Origin: Escherichia phage vB_EcoM_NBG1
Sequence record: MH243438.1
Length of the DNA stretch: 64,000 nt
Direction: 5' to 3' (one strand)
The notes beneath the pieces are model-generated. The model was given only the letters and a program-made list of their open reading frames with translations. It searched no databases and was not told the origin of the DNA. Position numbers and translations under genes: made by a program. Of the stretch, positions 14,935 through 44,232 are shown piece after piece. Positions within the stretch are counted from its first letter, which is position 1. The number at the start of each line of letters is the position of its first letter.

Positions 14935-15404
14935 TTTAAACTCTTTCTAAGCTGCTTTTTGAATGAAGCTATTAATTGTGTTTTAGTATCAGATTCATTA
15001 TATTCAAATCCTCTTTGAAGCATCTCAGCCATCATTTCCTCTTTACCTAGTCTTGAGAACTCTTTAGTTTTGTCTGGAACAAAATTAGGATGGATATTAT
15101 TATCAGAATAATCTTGTTTCAAATAAGCAAGAAGAGCTTCAAGCCATTTGAGGTAGTCGACATCACGACCTTTAAGACCAGAACGGTTGAACTTATGCTT
15201 CATTTGGCCTTCTGCTGCGTTGCACAGATTACAGAGTAACCCACGAACTCTACCTGCTTTTGGCCCGTTTAATTCGTGGTCGTGGTCAAGATGGTTACCT
15301 TGAACATCAGGGTCTAATTCACGGTGGCAAATAGGACACTTACCGTTCTGTGCATCATAAAATTTTTGTTTTTCTTCTTTGTATAATTTGCCAGATAATA
15401 ACAT
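14931..15404 (-). CDS. 49: Endonuclease VII (Holliday junction resolvase) gp49
   Basis: MLLSGKLYKEEKQKFYDAQNGKCPICHRELD... 157 aa, close match to T4 endo VII. Confidence 0.9.
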   Translation of the reverse strand: MLLSGKLYKEEKQKFYDAQNGKCPICHRELDPDVQGNHLDHDHELNGPKAGRVRGLLCNLCNAAEGQMKHKFNRSGLKGRDVDYLKWLEALLAYLKQDYSDNNIHPNFVPDKTKEFSRLGKEEMMAEMLQRGFEYNESDTKTQLIASFKKQLRKSLK

Positions 15405-15440
15405 AATAAACCCTTACCATATTAGATAAGGGTATTTATA
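15405..15440 (-). promoter_or_regulatory. Gene 49 leader: late promoter TATAAATA (15433-15440) overlapping a hairpin next to the start codon
   Basis: Minus strand reads TATAAATACCCTTATCTAATATGGTAAGGGTTTATTATG; inverted repeat ACCCTTA/TAAGGGT. Confidence 0.5.
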
Positions 15441-15442
15441 AT

Positions 15443-15622
15443 TTAATAAATGTTATAAAAGTCACGATGGAAACGTTTGTATTGACGAATCATTCTTTTA
15501 GTAGGACGTGTTACCGAAATGATTGAAGTCCTCATGTTCGGATTGTTTGGAGCACCAATTATAACAAATTTCCAAGATTTTTGGCCGTTTGTTCTTTCGC
15601 CAAAAAATAATGCAGTTTTCAT
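15443..15622 (-). CDS. small basic protein, paralog A (59 aa)
   Basis: Hand-translated MKTALFFGERTNGQKSWKFVIIGAPNNPNMRTSIISVTRPTKRMIRQYKRFHRDFYNIY; paralog of 16047-16244. Confidence 0.45.
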   Translation of the reverse strand: MKTALFFGERTNGQKSWKFVIIGAPNNPNMRTSIISVTRPTKRMIRQYKRFHRDFYNIY

Positions 15623-15631
15623 AATAAGCCC

Positions 15632-16045
15632 TTAACTTAAACGTCTTTCTAAATATTCAATGTATTCCGCTGCGGCTTGCATCAGATTACCTTCATAACC
15701 GTCATTATTTTCTTGACCGGCTAATTTAGCTAAAGCATAAGAAATACGTTCACCTTCGAATTCGCCAAGTCCACCATCACAAACTACTTGGTCAATTTCT
15801 TCGAGTTCATCTATTGAATGGGATTCCCAGAAGCACCAAAGAGAAGTATCACGGTCATAGATGCAAAGTTTCTCACCTGTGTTCAACATCACTTCGTTAA
15901 TGCCATGGTCGCCATAACCATCTTCGGTAGTAGTACCAATTACCTTGATGATTGTTCCTTTCTTTAATTCAGGAAACTTGACTTGTAGTTCTTCATCTTC
16001 TTTAACAATCTTGAACCATTTACCGCGAGTTTCAGAAATATTCAT
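15632..16045 (-). CDS. hypothetical protein (T4 pin/49.x region)
   Basis: Start reassigned to MNISETRGKWFK; hydrophobic N-terminal extension in track ORF judged spurious. Confidence 0.5.
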   Translation of the reverse strand: MNISETRGKWFKIVKEDEELQVKFPELKKGTIIKVIGTTTEDGYGDHGINEVMLNTGEKLCIYDRDTSLWCFWESHSIDELEEIDQVVCDGGLGEFEGERISYALAKLAGQENNDGYEGNLMQAAAEYIEYLERRLS

Positions 16046-16046
16046 A

Positions 16047-16244
16047 TCAATATTCTCTATAAAAGTTACGATGAGAACGTTTAGCTTTGCGAAGCTGACG
16101 TTTAGTAGGACGAACTGTAAATGGTTGTCCAGAGAAAAAATTAGGATCGGTTTTAATAAGCAAATACCAATCATGTTTGCCATTTTTTAATAAACGGTAC
16201 AATAATTTAACTTGCATAATAATCTCTTCCCATTTCCATATCAA
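16047..16244 (-). CDS. small basic protein, paralog B
   Basis: ...NGKHDWYLLIKTDPNFFSGQPFTVRPTKRQLRKAKRSHRNFYREY shares NG-K-W...VxRPTKR...HRxFY with paralog A. Confidence 0.45.
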   Translation of the reverse strand: MIWKWEEIIMQVKLLYRLLKNGKHDWYLLIKTDPNFFSGQPFTVRPTKRQLRKAKRSHRNFYREY

Positions 16245-16345
16245 TTAATTCATTTATTGAAGGTTCATCATAACACGTTTCTTCGTCGTTGTAAACTGTT
16301 TCGACGTCTGGCTCGACCGTCTCCCATCGAGCCGAATACCACGGT

Positions 16346-16702
16346 TTAACCGCGGAGCTTATTGAGCTCTTCATAATCAATCCAGGATTCTAACCCAGAT
16401 GGCAGGTCACATTCGATGTTCCACAGAAGCTCTTCAATGGCTTGTAGACGATTGAGTTCTTCAACGGTAATAGTAACCATTGGTTCAACCGGTTTTGCCT
16501 TTTTAACCATCATGTCATTCATCAGGACGTACAAGTCGTCACGAACAACGGTATCATTCCAACCCCATGATTTGGCTGCATACGCTAATGATGATGGGAG
16601 CACATTTAAAACTTCAATAATAGATGGAGATTCAGGACCAAGCTCAGATACACAAACTTCGTATACATCTTGGAAATCTTTAAGATTTAATGAATATGTC
16701 AT
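16346..16702 (-). CDS. hypothetical protein
   Basis: 118-aa acidic ORF; start codon inside 22-bp repeat. Confidence 0.5.
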   Translation of the reverse strand: MTYSLNLKDFQDVYEVCVSELGPESPSIIEVLNVLPSSLAYAAKSWGWNDTVVRDDLYVLMNDMMVKKAKPVEPMVTITVEELNRLQAIEELLWNIECDLPSGLESWIDYEELNKLRG

Positions 16703-16721
16703 TTAAAATATTCTCGCAGTT
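16700..16721 (-). repeat. 22-bp direct repeat, copy 1 (catttaaaatattctcgcagtt)
   Basis: Identical to 17015-17036; here intergenic between stop of 16721-17017 and start of 16346-16702. Confidence 0.7.
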
Positions 16722-17017
16722 TATTGTTCTACACATGCACAGGAAACTTCGAAATCAGGACCGTCGTACTTCCAGTGATATTCACCAACAGGAATCCAGT
16801 CACCATGCTCGTTTTCTTCATAGTCCTCAGGCTCAAGGCCAACGAATCGCCATTGGACACCGATGATTCTATTACCCATCATTACTCGAAATTCGCCCCA
16901 TGGATTATCAATAGCATACTGAATATCGTTCTTAGCACGAGAGCACATTTCTTGATATAACAAAGTTTCTAATTCGTCCTGGTCATAAGGGCCTGGGAAA
17001 GTTAAATCGATATTCAT
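16721..17017 (-). CDS. hypothetical protein (candidate inserted gene)
   Basis: 98-aa acidic ORF flanked by the 22-bp direct repeats. Confidence 0.5.
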   Translation of the reverse strand: MNIDLTFPGPYDQDELETLLYQEMCSRAKNDIQYAIDNPWGEFRVMMGNRIIGVQWRFVGLEPEDYEENEHGDWIPVGEYHWKYDGPDFEVSCACVEQ

Positions 17018-17277
17018 TTAAAATATTCTCGCAGTTGGTCAAATCCACCAATGTGACTTCCGTCAGGAGCAAACACTTGAGGCATCGTCAATCCAACATG
17101 TGTTTCACGTCCAAGCTTAGCCAGAAGCTCAGCAATTTTCTCATCGTCGAACACACCTTTTTCTGGCATAACATTAATGAATTCGAATGGTTGTTTCTTA
17201 ACAGTCAGCAATCGTTTCGCATTATCACAATAAATGCATTTATGAATAGTAGAGTCATACCCGTACACTTTAAACAT
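17014..17277 (-). CDS. nrdC: Thioredoxin/glutaredoxin NrdC
   Basis: MFKVYGYDSTIHKCIYCDNAKRLLTVKKQPFEFINVMPEKGVFDDEKIAELL... near-identical to T4 NrdC; start at internal Met. Confidence 0.85.
   Translation of the reverse strand: MFKVYGYDSTIHKCIYCDNAKRLLTVKKQPFEFINVMPEKGVFDDEKIAELLAKLGRETHVGLTMPQVFAPDGSHIGGFDQLREYFK
17015..17036 (-). repeat. 22-bp direct repeat, copy 2
   Basis: Identical 22-mer; here it encodes the nrdC C-terminus (LREYFK-stop) and overlaps the next start codon. Confidence 0.7.
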
Positions 17278-17683
17278 TATTTTTCCTTTCATCAATTAAA
17301 TATGCAATGCCAAATACAATACATGTAATAAAACCTGTGATACAGATAGAAACCAACAACACTGTACCAAAGAACCAAATCAAGTTATCTTTAGTAGTTT
17401 GTTTGATATCCATCTCACGAATTTCTATAGCTATCGTATCACCTTTATTCAGAAGCGTATAAAACGATGGCGATACACGTCTGTCAAAAACTCGTCCTTG
17501 CTCATCTTTATAGACTGCAATAAATTCTAATTTAGAATATTTTCCTGTAGATTGACCTGAGATTAGCTCTACTACCTCCACAGGAATTACTTTAGTTTCC
17601 ATGTAAGTATTCTGGCTGTTCCAAATGAATGGAATAATAGCAAAAACTAAAGCTGCGATAAAACAACGAAAGCTATATCTCAT
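17270..17683 (-). CDS. membrane protein
   Basis: 137 aa with N- and C-terminal hydrophobic helices. Confidence 0.5.
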   Translation of the reverse strand: MRYSFRCFIAALVFAIIPFIWNSQNTYMETKVIPVEVVELISGQSTGKYSKLEFIAVYKDEQGRVFDRRVSPSFYTLLNKGDTIAIEIREMDIKQTTKDNLIWFFGTVLLVSICITGFITCIVFGIAYLIDERKNNV

Positions 17684-17988
17684 TATAATGTTCTCTCAAA
17701 TTTGTGGAAGCATTTACGGCATTTCAATTTCAAGTTATCACTGGTCCAGTTAACCAGTTGGACTTGGATAGTTCCACATTCCGGACATGGATGTTTTGCT
17801 GCCGATTTGGCAGCATTTTCACGTCGTTCAACCATTTTCATTATTTCGTTCCATGCTGGAGGAACGAACTCTTCTTCACCATGAATTTTATCTCGCTGAA
17901 CAAATTCAATCTTTGAACTATCATCAATAAACTTAACCAAGTCATGATTAGTGCTCATATCAATATCCTCTAAAAGACGTAGTTTCAT
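17683..17988 (-). CDS. zinc-ribbon protein
   Basis: CPECG...CRKC cysteine pairs; start may be MSTNHD at 17958. Confidence 0.5.
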   Translation of the reverse strand: MKLRLLEDIDMSTNHDLVKFIDDSSKIEFVQRDKIHGEEEFVPPAWNEIMKMVERRENAAKSAAKHPCPECGTIQVQLVNWTSDNLKLKCRKCFHKFERTL

Positions 17989-18938
17989 TATAAAACCTCA
18001 ATGGCATTTCGTAAACCATCCGCTTTCGCATTCAGAGCTTTTAACGATTTAGTTTGTTCTTTAATCTGAGCTTCGACTTCTTTCAGACGAGATTTGAGAT
18101 ATTCACGTTCTTCGGCCATAATATCTACCTTTTCTGCTTTAGGTTCTTTAATAGGCTTAGGCTTATACGTATTAGGGTTCTTCAACTTAATTTGAATGCG
18201 AGAACTGAATAACATCGAACCGTTATCTTCGGTTTCATCATGCATTTCTACCACGTCCATGATTCTTAACATCATGCGAAGTTTATAAGACAGCGAACGA
18301 ACGGTTTTATTGTGCTTCTTAATTTCTTCAGCTTTCATGGTGCCGAGATTACGTGAGTAATAATAAGGAACCTGAATATCAATTGATAATGATGCAGTAC
18401 CATTACCGGTTGGTTTGAACACTGCAGTAACCCAATCTTTAGCATGAACTGTATTTGTACGATCATCGCCGCCTGTGAATAATTTACGAGAATGTTTAAA
18501 AAGCATATTCACTTGGTTATTGAATTCACAAGCAAATTTATCAGCAAATTTAGTTTCAGGAATGGTAGATAACCAATCAGCCAAATGAGTCTTTTTAACA
18601 TCATTAACAATAGTGAATTCAACCAAATCGGTTTTAGATGTCACAGATTTAATAAAGCTCGGCTTCATAAAGTTTTTAATGTTATCGCGAGCTACAGTAG
18701 AAGATAATAAACGAGAACGTTTGAACCATTGAAGCAGTGTCCCTAATGAATGAGAATATGCATTTTGAGTATCTTTACAGATATGATTTTCTTGGCCTAT
18801 GTATGTACCAAAATCTCGAAGAATACCACTTACTACATCTCGGTGTGGAACATCAAATCCTAGTGCACCAGAAGCACGTTGGGCATGAACGTTAGCGATA
18901 AGACCTGCAAAGTATTCAATGTAATGTGAACGTGTCAT
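17988..18938 (-). CDS. hypothetical protein with C-terminal coiled coil (316 aa)
   Basis: ~250-aa globular part then heptad-rich tail EEREYLKSRLKEVEAQIKEQTKSLKALNAKADGLRNAIEVL. Confidence 0.6.
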   Translation of the reverse strand: MTRSHYIEYFAGLIANVHAQRASGALGFDVPHRDVVSGILRDFGTYIGQENHICKDTQNAYSHSLGTLLQWFKRSRLLSSTVARDNIKNFMKPSFIKSVTSKTDLVEFTIVNDVKKTHLADWLSTIPETKFADKFACEFNNQVNMLFKHSRKLFTGGDDRTNTVHAKDWVTAVFKPTGNGTASLSIDIQVPYYYSRNLGTMKAEEIKKHNKTVRSLSYKLRMMLRIMDVVEMHDETEDNGSMLFSSRIQIKLKNPNTYKPKPIKEPKAEKVDIMAEEREYLKSRLKEVEAQIKEQTKSLKALNAKADGLRNAIEVL

Positions 18939-18966
18939 AATATTTTCCTCTCGTTAAGATAAATTC

Positions 18967-18996
18967 ATTATACTCCAACCATCCTTGGTTGTAAAC
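18967..18996 (-). promoter_or_regulatory. Early promoter with spacer hairpin
   Basis: Minus strand GTTTAC -35, 18-nt spacer containing CAACCA-AGGA-TGGTTG hairpin, TATAAT -10. Confidence 0.5.
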
Positions 18997-19000
18997 TATT

Positions 19001-19960
19001 TTATGATTTTAATGCATTCATTGCGTTAAAAAGTTTAGAATACTGCAACTGGAGATTCGTTACAACACTTTGAGCATCACGAAGCTTAGCTTGTGCTTTG
19101 TCAAGTTCAACAGACAGTTGGTCCATAGTGGCCTTGATTTGATTGTAATGGTAATCTTCGGCCGGAAGAAGGTCATTAGAAACATTTAGTTTTACTGCAG
19201 ACAGTTTGCACACATTTGGCAAACCTTTAAACATTGATTTAGCCGAAGTAGAATAAGCACTTAGGACTTCGGCTTGTTCAATTGGGGTCCCAGTAAGCGA
19301 TGCTTCAAACAATGCATTTTCCTTTTTAAGATTTTGATAGTATTCAGAGTCTTTGTGCCACCATGGCGCAGGAACCTTTTTACCAATAGATACACGAGCC
19401 TGGATAGCGATATTGCCCTTATTCTTGATAGGGTCGATAATATTAAGCTCACGAGAATAAATTGCTTTAATCTGGTGAATATTATCACCTAAAACTTCCA
19501 ACGCTTGGTGGAATACACGAGCAACGTTATCATTCTTAGGTTTATACGTGAGAGTGAACTCGTTCTCACTGATAACCATGATTTCCAACTTATCGTAAGT
19601 ATATTTCAAATGTTTCATGTTAATTGCTTGAGGACGAATACGAGAAGCAATGGCCATCAGATTGTTAAGGTTATTCCGGAACTGCTTAGCGAAATATTGT
19701 CCTTCACCGCCAATACAAAAATTACGAAGTTTCTGTTTGGCCAATAAACGGCTGAACTCGCCATTTTTAATGAACTCTTTAACGGGTGTGTTAGTAACGC
19801 ATTCAAATTGAGTAAACTTACGAGAATTAATCCCATAATACGAACAGATTTCCTCAATCTCTTCAGGAGTCTTTACAGGCATACGGATAGGATTAGGTCC
19901 TGGAGTATATGCGTTCGAGGTAAATTCTTTGATAAGTTCTCTACGTGTAATAAAAGCCAT
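19001..19960 (-). CDS. hypothetical protein with C-terminal coiled coil (319 aa)
   Basis: Same architecture as neighbours. Confidence 0.6.
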   Translation of the reverse strand: MAFITRRELIKEFTSNAYTPGPNPIRMPVKTPEEIEEICSYYGINSRKFTQFECVTNTPVKEFIKNGEFSRLLAKQKLRNFCIGGEGQYFAKQFRNNLNNLMAIASRIRPQAINMKHLKYTYDKLEIMVISENEFTLTYKPKNDNVARVFHQALEVLGDNIHQIKAIYSRELNIIDPIKNKGNIAIQARVSIGKKVPAPWWHKDSEYYQNLKKENALFEASLTGTPIEQAEVLSAYSTSAKSMFKGLPNVCKLSAVKLNVSNDLLPAEDYHYNQIKATMDQLSVELDKAQAKLRDAQSVVTNLQLQYSKLFNAMNALKS

Positions 19961-19986
19961 TTTATATTCCTCATGTTGAAAAATTT

Positions 19987-20016
19987 ATTATACTCCAACC
20001 ATCCTTGGTTGTACAT
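19987..20016 (-). promoter_or_regulatory. Early promoter with spacer hairpin (copy of 18967-18996 core)
   Basis: 24 bp identical to 18968-18993 (ttatactccaaccatccttggttgta); -35 variant ATGTAC. Confidence 0.45.
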
Positions 20017-21011
20017 CATTCCTTAAGAAGTTTTACTACTTGAATAAGATTAGCTCGTTCTGTTTTATTTTTACCATTTAAGCCTGCTAATCGTGAGATT
20101 TCATCGTCAGTCTGTTGAATAGTTACATTAAGTTCGTTAATCAAAGCTTCAAAGTATTTGATTTGCTCAGCATGTTTTGATTCAAATTTCTGAACAGGAA
20201 TAACGTCTTGGTTCAGTTCATCAATAAGGTCTTTAAGAGCATCTTCTTGGTTGATATCATATTCAACTTCTTTTATTTCTTCAACGAGCTCGTCTTTATA
20301 TCTAACGTCTTTTAGTCCTGGTGCTGGTCCTGAAATCTCTTCTTTAAGAGTACAAACATATCCAATACGGTATCCAATGCCGTCTCGCTTGATATCAACT
20401 TCGTCGATAAATCCACAATGTTTAAGCCCGGAGCCGATTATGTCAAAATATCCTTGACGTCGTCCTTCAAACGTTACACGAACTACTAAGACAGTTTTAC
20501 CTGCAACCTTTTGAAGCTCACATTTATAAAAGTCAGTTGAACCTGAATAACGTGGATTAGTTTTAAAGTTCATCTGACGATCTAGGCCCATTTGTAAGCG
20601 TGCTGTTACGGCCATAAAACGTGTTTGGTTCTCGTTAAGATGAGCAACAATCCATTTCAAAGGCATTTTACACTGTTCACGGCCGAACAAATCAGTACGT
20701 CCTAAATTACGCAGGATATTGTTAGAGTTAATCATCGACAGAACGTTAAGTTTATTCAGCGCGCTGAAGATTCCATCGGCCATTGATTTTCCGTAACCTT
20801 TACACGCTTTAATAAGTGCTCGCGGTAGATTAGTATAGATTTCAGACGGCATATGAAAATCAAATTTACTAACCAGTAATTGATGAACTTGGATAGCAAT
20901 TTGTTCATAATTAAGTGCTCTGCGATCATTATGGTCTTTAAACCACACTTTAATCTGTGAAGCACATAAACCGTTAATTTCATGTTTTACCGCATCAGAT
21001 GTAATGCTCAT
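20016..21011 (-). CDS. hypothetical protein with C-terminal coiled coil (331 aa)
   Basis: Globular N-terminal part plus acidic coiled-coil tail. Confidence 0.6.
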   Translation of the reverse strand: MSITSDAVKHEINGLCASQIKVWFKDHNDRRALNYEQIAIQVHQLLVSKFDFHMPSEIYTNLPRALIKACKGYGKSMADGIFSALNKLNVLSMINSNNILRNLGRTDLFGREQCKMPLKWIVAHLNENQTRFMAVTARLQMGLDRQMNFKTNPRYSGSTDFYKCELQKVAGKTVLVVRVTFEGRRQGYFDIIGSGLKHCGFIDEVDIKRDGIGYRIGYVCTLKEEISGPAPGLKDVRYKDELVEEIKEVEYDINQEDALKDLIDELNQDVIPVQKFESKHAEQIKYFEALINELNVTIQQTDDEISRLAGLNGKNKTERANLIQVVKLLKE

Positions 21012-21073
21012 AACTATTTCCTCAGATTGAATTGGAACTCAAAACCATTATAACCCGTCCTTGGGTAAAGCGT

Positions 21074-21601: not shown

Positions 21602-21628
21602 GTTTTACCTCCAGTAGTTGATAGGTCT

Positions 21629-21657
21629 ATAATAACATAACCATAGACCTTGTAAAC
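21629..21657 (-). promoter_or_regulatory. Early promoter with palindrome GGTCTAT...ATAGACC
   Basis: Minus strand GTTTAC, 17-nt spacer, TATTAT. Confidence 0.5.
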
Positions 21658-21659
21658 AA

Positions 21660-21947
21660 CTAAAAGAAACTTTTTTCGGTATTTTTTCCACTGAACCAAA
21701 CAGACTTCGGGATTTTTTGTAATTTTTCAGATTTAAGTTTCTCTTCCTGTTCTTTCTTATATACACCCTTGTCGTACTGGAGCATCTCTATGGCATTCTT
21801 TTGCAAACGATCTAAGGTAATTAAGGCTTTAGTTTTTCCTTTCAAGGAAGAGTCCTGGCGAACCTCCTCACTATATTGCATCGTAGAACTAACCATACGA
21901 TGAGCATACAGTTCGACTGCGGCTTTAATTTTTTGCATAAAATCCAT
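21660..21947 (-). CDS. hypothetical protein
   Basis: 95-aa ORF. Confidence 0.5.
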   Translation of the reverse strand: MDFMQKIKAAVELYAHRMVSSTMQYSEEVRQDSSLKGKTKALITLDRLQKNAIEMLQYDKGVYKKEQEEKLKSEKLQKIPKSVWFSGKNTEKSFF

Positions 21948-23086: not shown

Positions 23087-23184
23087 TTCGTTTCGATAGG
23101 TCTATAATAACATATCCTAAAAGCATGTACACTACTTTTTTAAAAATATTTTAACCCCCTAAAGGGACCCGAAGGTCCTCGCAT

Positions 23185-25663: not shown

Positions 25664-25827
25664 TTTACCATACTCGTTTCAATAAGATTCACTATGCCGT
25701 TTACCATGTTATAAGTAAACATCGGATAATTGTATTGTACTACAACATAAGAGATAAGCAAAAGTTTCATTTTGTTCTCCGTTCGTTTTGGTAGGACTAC
25801 TATAACATAATCCTACCAAGATGTAAA

Positions 25828-26221: not shown

Positions 26222-26277
26222 AATGTTCTCCTCTAGTAAGTAAGGACTACTATAACACAACCTGAGGAGAAGTAAAC
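26222..26277 (-). promoter_or_regulatory. Early promoter/Shine-Dalgarno cassette (near-copy of regB cassette)
   Basis: Minus strand GTTTAC-TTCTCCTC...TATAGT...CTAGAGGAGAACATT-ATG. Confidence 0.45.
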
Positions 26278-36534: not shown

Positions 36535-36592
36535 AATATTCTCCTCATGTTTTAATAGGACTACTATAATATATCCCTATCAGTTTGTACAC

Positions 36593-38107: not shown

Positions 38108-38157
38108 TTGTTTTGATAGGACTACTATAACATAGCCCTATCTTGTTGTAAACTGTT

Positions 38158-41194: not shown

Positions 41195-41240
41195 TTTGTT
41201 TTCCTCTTGATTTGATGTGATTACTATAACATAAACTTAC

Positions 41241-44183: not shown

Positions 44184-44232
44184 TTGTTTTGATAGGACTA
44201 CTATAACATAGTCCTATCAGCATGTAAACTAC

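Follow-up and report, generated by a model that had tools for sequence, protein, structure and literature searches.

Introduction

Illegitimate recombination has been proposed as a main route by which genes are added or replaced in T4 relatives, and short-homology or illegitimate recombination in T4 and its relatives gives deletions, duplications and replacements, the junctions of imported DNA usually carrying no clue to their mechanism (Petrov et al. 2010, PMC2993671). T4-type recombination acts on homologies of less than 50 base pairs (bp), and excision of a repeat-flanked ORFan (ORF, open reading frame) as mini-circles has been demonstrated (PMC2839356, in which Singer et al. 1982 is cited for short-homology recombination in T4). 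In T6, the gp49.1-nrdC.1 locus undergoes SegB-dependent tandem segmental amplification; Gp49.2 of this locus inhibits OLD and Gp49.3 is without effect on OLD (Nat Commun 2026, PMC13096335). The present analysis concerns a gene of the 49.3 family in Escherichia phage vB_EcoM_NBG1 (MH243438.1), which lies between nrdC and a gene of 118 amino acids (aa) and is bordered by two copies of a 22-bp direct repeat. The stretch of 64,000 nucleotides (nt) that was analysed is called the window.

With a probability of about 0.7, the arrangement would go back to a single old joint made by illegitimate (unequal) recombination, the repeats having later mediated the loss or exchange of 49.3. No literature describing this specific junction was found.

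The duplicated end of nrdC

With an identity of 95.7% to Escherichia phage phiC120 and of 95% to RB69 in this region, the window was assigned to Mosigvirus (RB69-like, T4-type). All genes of the region are carried on the minus strand, in the order nrdC.3, nrdC.2, nrdC.7, nrdC, the 98-aa ORF, the 118-aa ORF, 49.1, pin, a 59-aa ORF and endonuclease VII. The features of the locus, in window positions, are as follows.

17014..17277, minus strand: nrdC, glutaredoxin/thioredoxin of 87 aa (Pfam Glutaredoxin, E 5.6e-07; phrog_22), conserved left anchor of the variable slot
17014..17036, minus strand: proximal repeat copy, comprising the last 6 codons and TGA stop of nrdC and the ATG and initiation region of 49.3
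16722..17036, not assigned to a strand: presence/absence unit of 315 bp, made up of a 293-bp unique part and one 22-mer, corresponding to the columns absent from RB69 in the alignment
16721..17017, minus strand: 49.3 homologue of 98 aa (phrog_4203; similar to T4 gp49.3), the variable gene
16699..16721, minus strand: distal repeat copy, a noncoding remnant of the nrdC 3′ end that serves as spacer and ATG(A) of the 118-aa gene
16346..16702, minus strand: 118-aa gene, equivalent to RB69 ORF092c plus ORF091c (phrog_11244, E 1.4e-74), with two fused modules, N63 (16514-16702) and B (16346-16513)

Exactly two copies of the 22-mer CATTTAAAATATTCTCGCAGTT are present in the window (16700-16721 and 17015-17036). 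No third copy was present in the 64 kb with up to 3 mismatches allowed, and 100 dinucleotide-preserving shuffles of the window gave 0 occurrences. The repeat finder extended the repeat to 23 nt by an adjacent T (16699-16721 and 17014-17036, spacing 315). Read in the sense of the genes, the repeat is AACTGCGAGAATATTTTAAATG(A). The C-terminus of NrdC, Q-L-R-E-Y-F-K-stop, is encoded by the proximal copy, in which the TGA overlaps the ATG of the 98-aa ORF (ATGA). The distal copy opens on the last A of the TAA stop of this ORF (16721) and consists of an 18-nt spacer and the ATG of the 118-aa ORF. The edges of the 315-bp unit can be slid by up to 22-23 bp. An earlier note on this DNA had reported the perfect repeat at these positions, with the right copy as the LREYFK-stop end of nrdC overlapping the start of 16721-17017 and the left copy as the initiation region of 16346-16702; its coordinates and frames are all correct.

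Filled and empty sites among relatives

A panel of 24 genomes and contigs was compared. It drew on 22 annotated phage-collection regions, as IMG/VR contained too few Mosigvirus contigs, and comprises 13 filled sites (window included) and 11 empty ones (RB69 and 10 others). In RB69, nrdC is directly followed by the homologue of the 118-aa gene with an ATGA overlap, the 22-mer is present only once, and RB69 is exactly 315 columns shorter when aligned to the window and phiC120. All 13 filled genomes have the 315-bp spacing and one and the same distal joint, at which GAACAATAA abuts ACTGCGAG.

The Mosigvirus-type insert was found in 56 phage database records. A 111-bp probe spanning the distal joint matched 42 records over its full length (filled, with the 118-aa allele of the downstream gene), about 14 records matched the 49.3 end and the 22-mer only (filled, 111-aa allele), and about 61 matched the 118-aa start and the 22-mer only (empty). 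All 56 filled records have the joint found in the panel. About half of the related phages are without 49.3. In a metagenome scan, one empty and one filled contig were recovered, the latter with the 315-bp spacing and the same joint. No filled genome without the repeat was seen in the panel, the database records or the metagenome scan.

The empty site that the earlier note had expected in related T4-like genomes therefore exists in RB69, 10 further panel members and about 61 records. Relatives do not always carry the 98-aa gene: empty sites are common and the filled ones all have the repeat. Other cargo between the same repeats, also envisaged there, did not turn up in the phage-collection rows inspected, in IMG/VR or in the metagenome scan.

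The novel joint

The 3′ end of T4 nrdC, CAATTGCGGGAATACTTTAAATGA, is homologous to the 22-mer at the DNA level, which identifies the 22-mer as natively nrdC sequence. In Tequatrovirus-like contigs the same 22-mer terminates nrdC (L004-L006), precedes a different gene (A, 71 aa) and has no second copy. The ATGA junction of nrdC and 49.3 is common to T4 and the filled Mosigviruses. This proximal junction is therefore homologous or ancestral, and only the distal joint is novel.

At the distal joint, the 49.3 stop abuts nrdC sequence about 20 nt ahead of the stop of that gene. On the right-hand side of this joint lies, in the distal copy, the exact RB69-type nrdC/118-aa junction, overlapping TGA included; the adjacency of nrdC and the 118-aa gene therefore predates the filled arrangement. 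That this adjacency preceded the present gene order had been suggested in the earlier note, and it is borne out by the distal copy being an nrdC remnant and by the precision of the empty sites. Adjacency of nrdC and N63 in Dhakavirus CLB_P2 indicates that it is old. Because all filled genomes have one joint and one 315-bp spacing, comparison of the sequences points to a single origin of the filled arrangement.

The main rival to a recombination joint between two genome types is tandem duplication or amplification. In a genome of the nrdC-49.3 type, a unit reaching from about 20 nt before the nrdC stop to the 49.3 stop would have been duplicated, and the second 49.3 would then have been replaced by the 118-aa gene through an RB69-type exchange. 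The joint of such a duplication would have exactly the observed structure, a 49.3 stop set against an nrdC remnant, and the T6 gp49.1-nrdC.1 locus does amplify in tandem under OLD pressure, in dependence on SegB, UvsX and UvsY (PMC13096335). However, at least two events are then needed, one of which is still a crossover in the 22-mer, and every genome seen has only 1.07 copies of the unit (the 293-bp unique part and the second 22-mer). The SegB motif RAWTSGAAC has 5 matches in the window, which is not above chance, the nearest being at 21030 and none lying within about 4 kb of the junction. Finally, a genome with two copies of 49.3 was not found among 302 places in 301 records, the lone two-place record being left uninspected. 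A tandem duplication is judged unlikely.

An independent control for reading history from a remnant is provided by another T4-type genus, in which 49.3 presence and absence is found independently between the IMG/VR contigs L017 (2142-2468) and L016 (2447-2464). The empty site of L016 has kept the last ~18 nt of 49.3 (CATGAGGAAAAACTATGA), with the Shine-Dalgarno sequence for gene B, and has no flanking repeat. The state of L016 is a plain deletion of 49.3.

Probable reuse of the repeat

The gene downstream of the repeat exists as two alleles. The 111-aa allele departs from the 118-aa allele at the first base past the start codon, and the two converge again where N63 meets B. The 118-aa allele is filled in the window and empty in RB69; the 111-aa allele is filled in Mizar, LF82-1 and TH12, and empty in AV109 and (by annotation) in ZQ3, G2285 and ESCO47. 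All four combinations of state and downstream allele thus occur, and the 22-mer is the sole sequence between the indel and the allele boundary. As all filled genomes have a single joint, the four combinations indicate that the 22-mer was probably the substrate of at least one later event. This event would have been either a repeat-mediated deletion or an ectopic crossover. Reuse of the 22-mer fits T4-type recombination on homologies of less than 50 bp and the excision of repeat-flanked ORFans as mini-circles (PMC2839356).

Modular shuffling could also be mediated by a PeSL motif, a combination of promoter and stem-loop, and the topology is that described by Arbiol et al. 2010, with an ORFan between two copies of the motif and a sister phage that has the motif only once (PMC2839356). 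Repeats that are truly PeSL-like even lie 2 kb away (upstream) in the window. At the 49.3 locus itself, however, a scan of 15400-19200 gave no gene-strand sigma-70 -35/-10 promoter and no terminator at either copy; the sole nearby match, at 16680-16709, is on the opposite strand (9/12). There is no stem-loop either, as the 81-nt contexts of the two copies are no more stably folded than shuffled sequences (z -0.39 and +0.68). Moreover, the repeat has a length of 22-23 bp where a PeSL motif has about 100 bp, one of its copies lies in coding sequence, and it occurs only twice in 64 kb. A PeSL-type cassette is considered extremely improbable here.

Other repeats of the window were recorded in their own right. 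Direct repeats of 42-43 nt surround single genes at 18958-19000 and 19978-20020 (spacing 1020 bp) and at 21620-21661 and 23095-23136 (1475 bp). On the minus strand, the first pair has a -35 element TTTACA, a stem-loop CAACCA-AGGA-TGGTTG and a -10 element TATAAT, which is a PeSL-type architecture. These 42-43-nt repeats might mediate PeSL-type shuffling around the gene that follows nrdC.3. An 18-nt motif, AGGACTACTATAACATAA, occurs in six copies (83-100% identical) over a span of about 18 kb, at 25793-25810, 26243-26260, 36557-36574, 38118-38135, 41217-41234 and 44194-44211; it is probably a regulatory (promoter-like) motif of the minus strand.

Age of the arrangement

Gene 49.3 is intact in 13/13 filled genomes and, with a ratio of nonsynonymous to synonymous divergence (pN/pS) of 0.11, is under purifying selection. 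The synonymous divergence (pS) of 49.3 is 0.225, compared with 0.165 in nrdC and 0.079 in the 118-aa gene. Between pairs of genomes, the insert diverges by 6.4% on average (maximum 11.3%) and the flanks by about 3%. The two repeat copies are identical (22/22) in 5 filled genomes, window included, and match at 19-21 of 22 positions in the others. The nrdC copy has a synonymous CTG-to-CTA change (G-to-A) in 6/13 filled and 8/11 empty genomes; the distal copy always has CTG and carries A2C in 5 genomes and T13A in 3. Since the two copies have drifted independently and remain identical in only 5/13 genomes, the duplication is old, and their identity in the window reflects retention and not homogenisation. 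The arrangement as a whole is old and inherited, not recent in this genome.

Both states occur inside the ICTV species Mosigvirus JS09 and inside Mosigvirus mar005p1, and the two states interleave on both flanks: Shf125875 (filled) and ST2 (empty) are 0.2% apart downstream, and phiC120 (filled) and RB69 (empty) 1.0% apart upstream. No flanking single-nucleotide polymorphism had an r2 with the state above 0.34, even at 8-26 bp from the junction. On neighbour-joining trees of the flanks, which are themselves affected by recombination, at least 4-5 changes of state were required, with a random expectation of 7-8 (p ~0.015).

Gene 49.3 and the slot in other genera

The 98-aa protein belongs to the gp49.3 protein family (phrog_4203 / PF26871). 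It matches phrog_4203 with E 3.6e-45 over residues 2-98 and T4 gp49.3 with 38% identity in BLASTP (E 9e-24), and PF26871 is precomputed on its homologues. Only 6 close homologues came out of a deep protein search. The AlphaFold2 model is moderately confident, with a best predicted local distance difference test score (pLDDT) of 82 and 56-67 for the other models; Foldseek found no neighbour of the predicted fold in the PDB (best E 0.69). Neither the 98-aa nor the 118-aa protein gave anything significant in sequence searches of Pfam (local copy), NCBIfam, PADLOC and the PDB. A foreign composition of 49.3 was considered and rejected: its guanine-plus-cytosine content (0.418, against 0.401 for the neighbouring 118-aa gene and 0.374 for the window) is not distinctive. 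For comparison, window NrdC is 92% identical to T4 NrdC.

Which of five small genes (A, N63, 49.3, B and 49.2) are present between nrdC and 49.1/pin, and in what order, varies among T4-type phages. The orders found are given below, a double colon marking a fusion.

T4: nrdC-49.3-49.2-49.1-pin-49, with ATGA overlaps
Tequatrovirus-like contig L006: A-B
Contig L015: A::B fusion, then 49.2
Moonvirus: A-49.3-B-49.2
Contig L017: A-49.3-B-49.2′
Contig L016: A-B-49.2′
Dhakavirus: N63-49.3
Mosigvirus, empty: N63::B
Mosigvirus, filled: 49.3-[22-mer]-N63::B

Gene 49.3 is a native member of this slot and not foreign cargo, and the insertion is best seen as a recombination between two phage genome types. 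The cassette insertion proposed in the earlier note thus holds in so far as a gene was inserted between nrdC and the 118-aa gene with duplication of 22 bp, and fails in so far as it implies a mobile element.

Such an element could be a transposon-like insertion with target-site duplication, a homing-endonuclease cassette or an integron-like cassette. A single gene between direct repeats and precise empty sites would fit formally, and homing endonucleases are common in this region of T-even genomes (PMC2993671). The insert, however, is a single ORF without a nuclease, transposase or integrase domain and without any Pfam, NCBIfam or PADLOC domain; endonuclease domains of the GIY-YIG, HNH and LAGLIDADG types were all lacking from the 98-aa protein. 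There are no convincing terminal inverted repeats on the insert, and a repeat of 22-23 bp is far above the usual length of a target-site duplication. The proximal junction is the same as in T4, so no new joint exists there, and 49.3 is found at this slot only, in one place in 300/301 records with the remaining, two-place record left uninspected. A mobile element is therefore regarded as very improbable.

The synteny of the slot bears on another alternative, in which the filled order is ancestral and originally had an unrelated spacer. The distal 22-mer would then have been copied later from the end of nrdC, by ectopic conversion or by selection of a good initiation region, and all empty sites would be deletions. 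The adjacency of 49.3 and B is syntenic in Moonvirus and L017, the empty genomes are less diverse and nested, repeat-mediated deletion is plausible, and 49.3 has been deleted independently in another genus (L016 versus L017). Yet conversion of about 22 bp without flanking homology is not known as an efficient process. The copy has nrdC codons at synonymous positions and ends exactly at the ATGA junction of the empty type, for which a carried-over remnant is a much simpler explanation. In the L016 deletion, furthermore, the remnant derives from 49.3 and not from the upstream gene, and there is no repeat; and the adjacency of nrdC and N63 is found independently in Dhakavirus. An ancestral filled order with a secondarily acquired repeat is quite improbable.

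Proposed history of the locus

The favoured explanation, a single old illegitimate joint with later use of the repeat, would start from two T4-type parents with different gene content after nrdC, one with nrdC-49.3 (T4-type) and the other with nrdC-118aa (RB69-type), both with ATGA junctions. A nonhomologous joint would have connected the 49.3 stop of the first parent to nrdC of the second, about 20 nt ahead of its stop, and homologous exchange in the conserved flanking genes would have finished the recombinant. The product would be nrdC-49.3-[nrdC 3′ remnant]-118aa, with 22-23 bp of nrdC end and initiation region doubled. The recombinant would have been viable because the joint coincided exactly with an ORF boundary and the remnant brought along the intact initiation region of the 118-aa gene; at this step, a functional initiation region may have been selected for. 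Later, the direct repeats would have offered a short homology to the phage's own recombination and replication machinery, resulting in precise loss of 49.3 (restoring the RB69-type junction) and/or ectopic exchange, and the filled/empty polymorphism would have been kept across Mosigvirus.

Several points weigh against this history. Downstream diversity of the empty genomes is 1.5%, versus 4.3% for the filled ones, and on midpoint-rooted flank trees the empties nest among filled lineages; many present-day empties may be secondary, repeat-mediated losses and not descendants of the original empty parent. In T4, Moonvirus and other genera, 49.3 is likewise a direct or close neighbour of nrdC, and the filled order is syntenic with these outgroups. 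The ultimate ancestral state of the slot may accordingly have held 49.3, in which case the model needs an earlier loss. No donor lineage was found, the nearest 49.3 outside Mosigvirus being only ~60% identical in protein. The numbers of filled and empty records include RefSeq/GenBank duplicates and 13 near-identical LF82 phages. Finally, with a microhomology of at most 1-2 nt at the distal joint, the sequence does not distinguish between break-join and copy-choice as the molecular route.

A more far-reaching idea may be added tentatively. Stop/start-overlap junctions of T4-type phages (ATGA with the last codons of the upstream gene) might in general be portable, self-generated linkers for the reversible excision and integration of single genes, as a promoter-less counterpart of PeSL cassettes; 49.3 and one 22-mer would then form a 315-bp circle or exchange unit, under balancing selection by host defence because the slot is an anti-defence island (Gp49.2 inhibits OLD, and B has an antitoxin-like annotation). 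We find this idea rather doubtful.

Neighbouring genes

In other genera, the two modules of the 118-aa gene are encoded separately. The match of residues 64-118 is to the 56-aa family phrog_3402, annotated as 'antitoxin' (E 3.3e-32), and the B module is a stand-alone 56-aa gene in L016/L017 (compare L017 2465-2635), L006 and Moonvirus. Homologues of N63 (residues 1-63), about 35-43% identical by tblastn, form a separate small gene in Dhakavirus; in CLB_P2 the N63-like gene directly follows nrdC (compare L038 1307-1483). Equivalence of the 118-aa gene to T4 49.2 was considered and rejected for lack of similarity to gp49.2; Mosigviruses are without 49.2 in the slot and have N63::B there instead. 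Another fusion in the slot, A::B of 129 aa, is present in a Tequatrovirus-like contig (L015 2363-2752). Gene fusion through loss of intervening DNA appears to recur in the slot downstream of nrdC.

In RB69 (AY303349; L001, 1647-2004), the 118-aa gene is broken up into ORF091c and ORF092c by one additional base (GGAACGGACAC versus GGAAC-GACAC), and the ORF is intact in all 10 other empty genomes examined. Either the frameshift is genuine or it goes back to a sequencing error of long ago.

The ORF containing pin (15632-16183, minus strand) extends to 183 aa. The PinA domain and most annotations begin at an internal ATG (137 aa, ~16045), and the long form is used in some records, e.g. JN02 and ESh15; the true start of pin is uncertain. 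According to annotation coordinates, pin and the RB69ORF087c-like 59-aa gene show presence/absence among Mosigviruses (Shf125875, OLB35 and ST0 versus S143_2 and JS09). In Shf125875 (L022), OLB35 (L023) and ST0 (L024), endonuclease VII is directly followed by the ORF089c-like gene, in comparison with S143_2 (L028) and JS09 (L031). This indel polymorphism lies less than 1.5 kb from the 49.3 junction. In AV109 (L039, 635-1048 and 2447-2792), the nrdC.7 homologue is seemingly split into two short ORFs, and an annotated homing endonuclease gene stands right after endonuclease VII, where other Mosigviruses have nrdD; this adds a mobile-element difference close to the locus.

Comparison with known systems

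The locus does not challenge current understanding; its value is that of a well-documented, experimentally tractable and unusually legible example of gene shuffling. It is a clean counter-example to junctions without a signature, since the nrdC remnant fixes the order of events and about 120 relatives give filled and empty alleles, while the two downstream alleles constitute a natural four-gamete test of the reuse of a short repeat. The nrdC-pin slot is a recombination-prone anti-defence region in T6 (PMC13096335), which makes 49.3 a reasonable candidate accessory or counter-defence gene. Its presence varies even inside single phage species that are used for therapy.

The locus belongs to a known class, the short-homology/illegitimate recombination indels in hyperplastic regions of T4-type phages. 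It shares with the cases described in T4 relatives a nonhomologous joint at an ORF boundary combined with homologous exchange of the flanks, repeats that are open to deletion, and a plastic region between conserved genes. It differs from the cases of Petrov et al. in that the sequence of events can be read from 22 bp left over from the neighbouring gene, and in that population data support reuse of the repeat.

The T6 amplification concerns the same locus and neighbourhood (49.1, 49.2, 49.3 and nrdC), depends on recombination and takes place in a slot with an anti-defence function. However, it yields a multi-copy array of ~1.3 kb that was selected in the laboratory, in contrast to the old, natural, single-copy gene with a 22-bp duplicated junction described here. 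The deletion seen between L017 and L016 involves the same family in the same slot, with an ORF-precise outcome and a remnant that shows the direction of the event; there, the remnant is that of 49.3 in the empty allele, without a repeat, whereas in Mosigvirus it is that of nrdC in the filled allele.

In PeSL shuffling (Arbiol et al. 2010, PMC2839356; Comeau et al. 2014, PMC4122927), likewise, a small ORF in a hyperplastic region lies between two short copies that end in the downstream initiation region and ATG, the sister phage without the ORF has one (chimeric) copy, as do RB69 and the 10 other empties here against 13 filled genomes, and excision and insertion by the phage's own homologous recombination have been proposed. 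The 49.3 repeat, by contrast, has no early promoter or stem-loop, measures 22-23 bp as opposed to about 100 bp and is unique to one junction; it stems from the coding 3′ end of nrdC and was made by the rearrangement itself, not supplied by a pre-existing dispersed linker. The 49.3 locus is thus not a member of the PeSL family, though it would work in a similar way.

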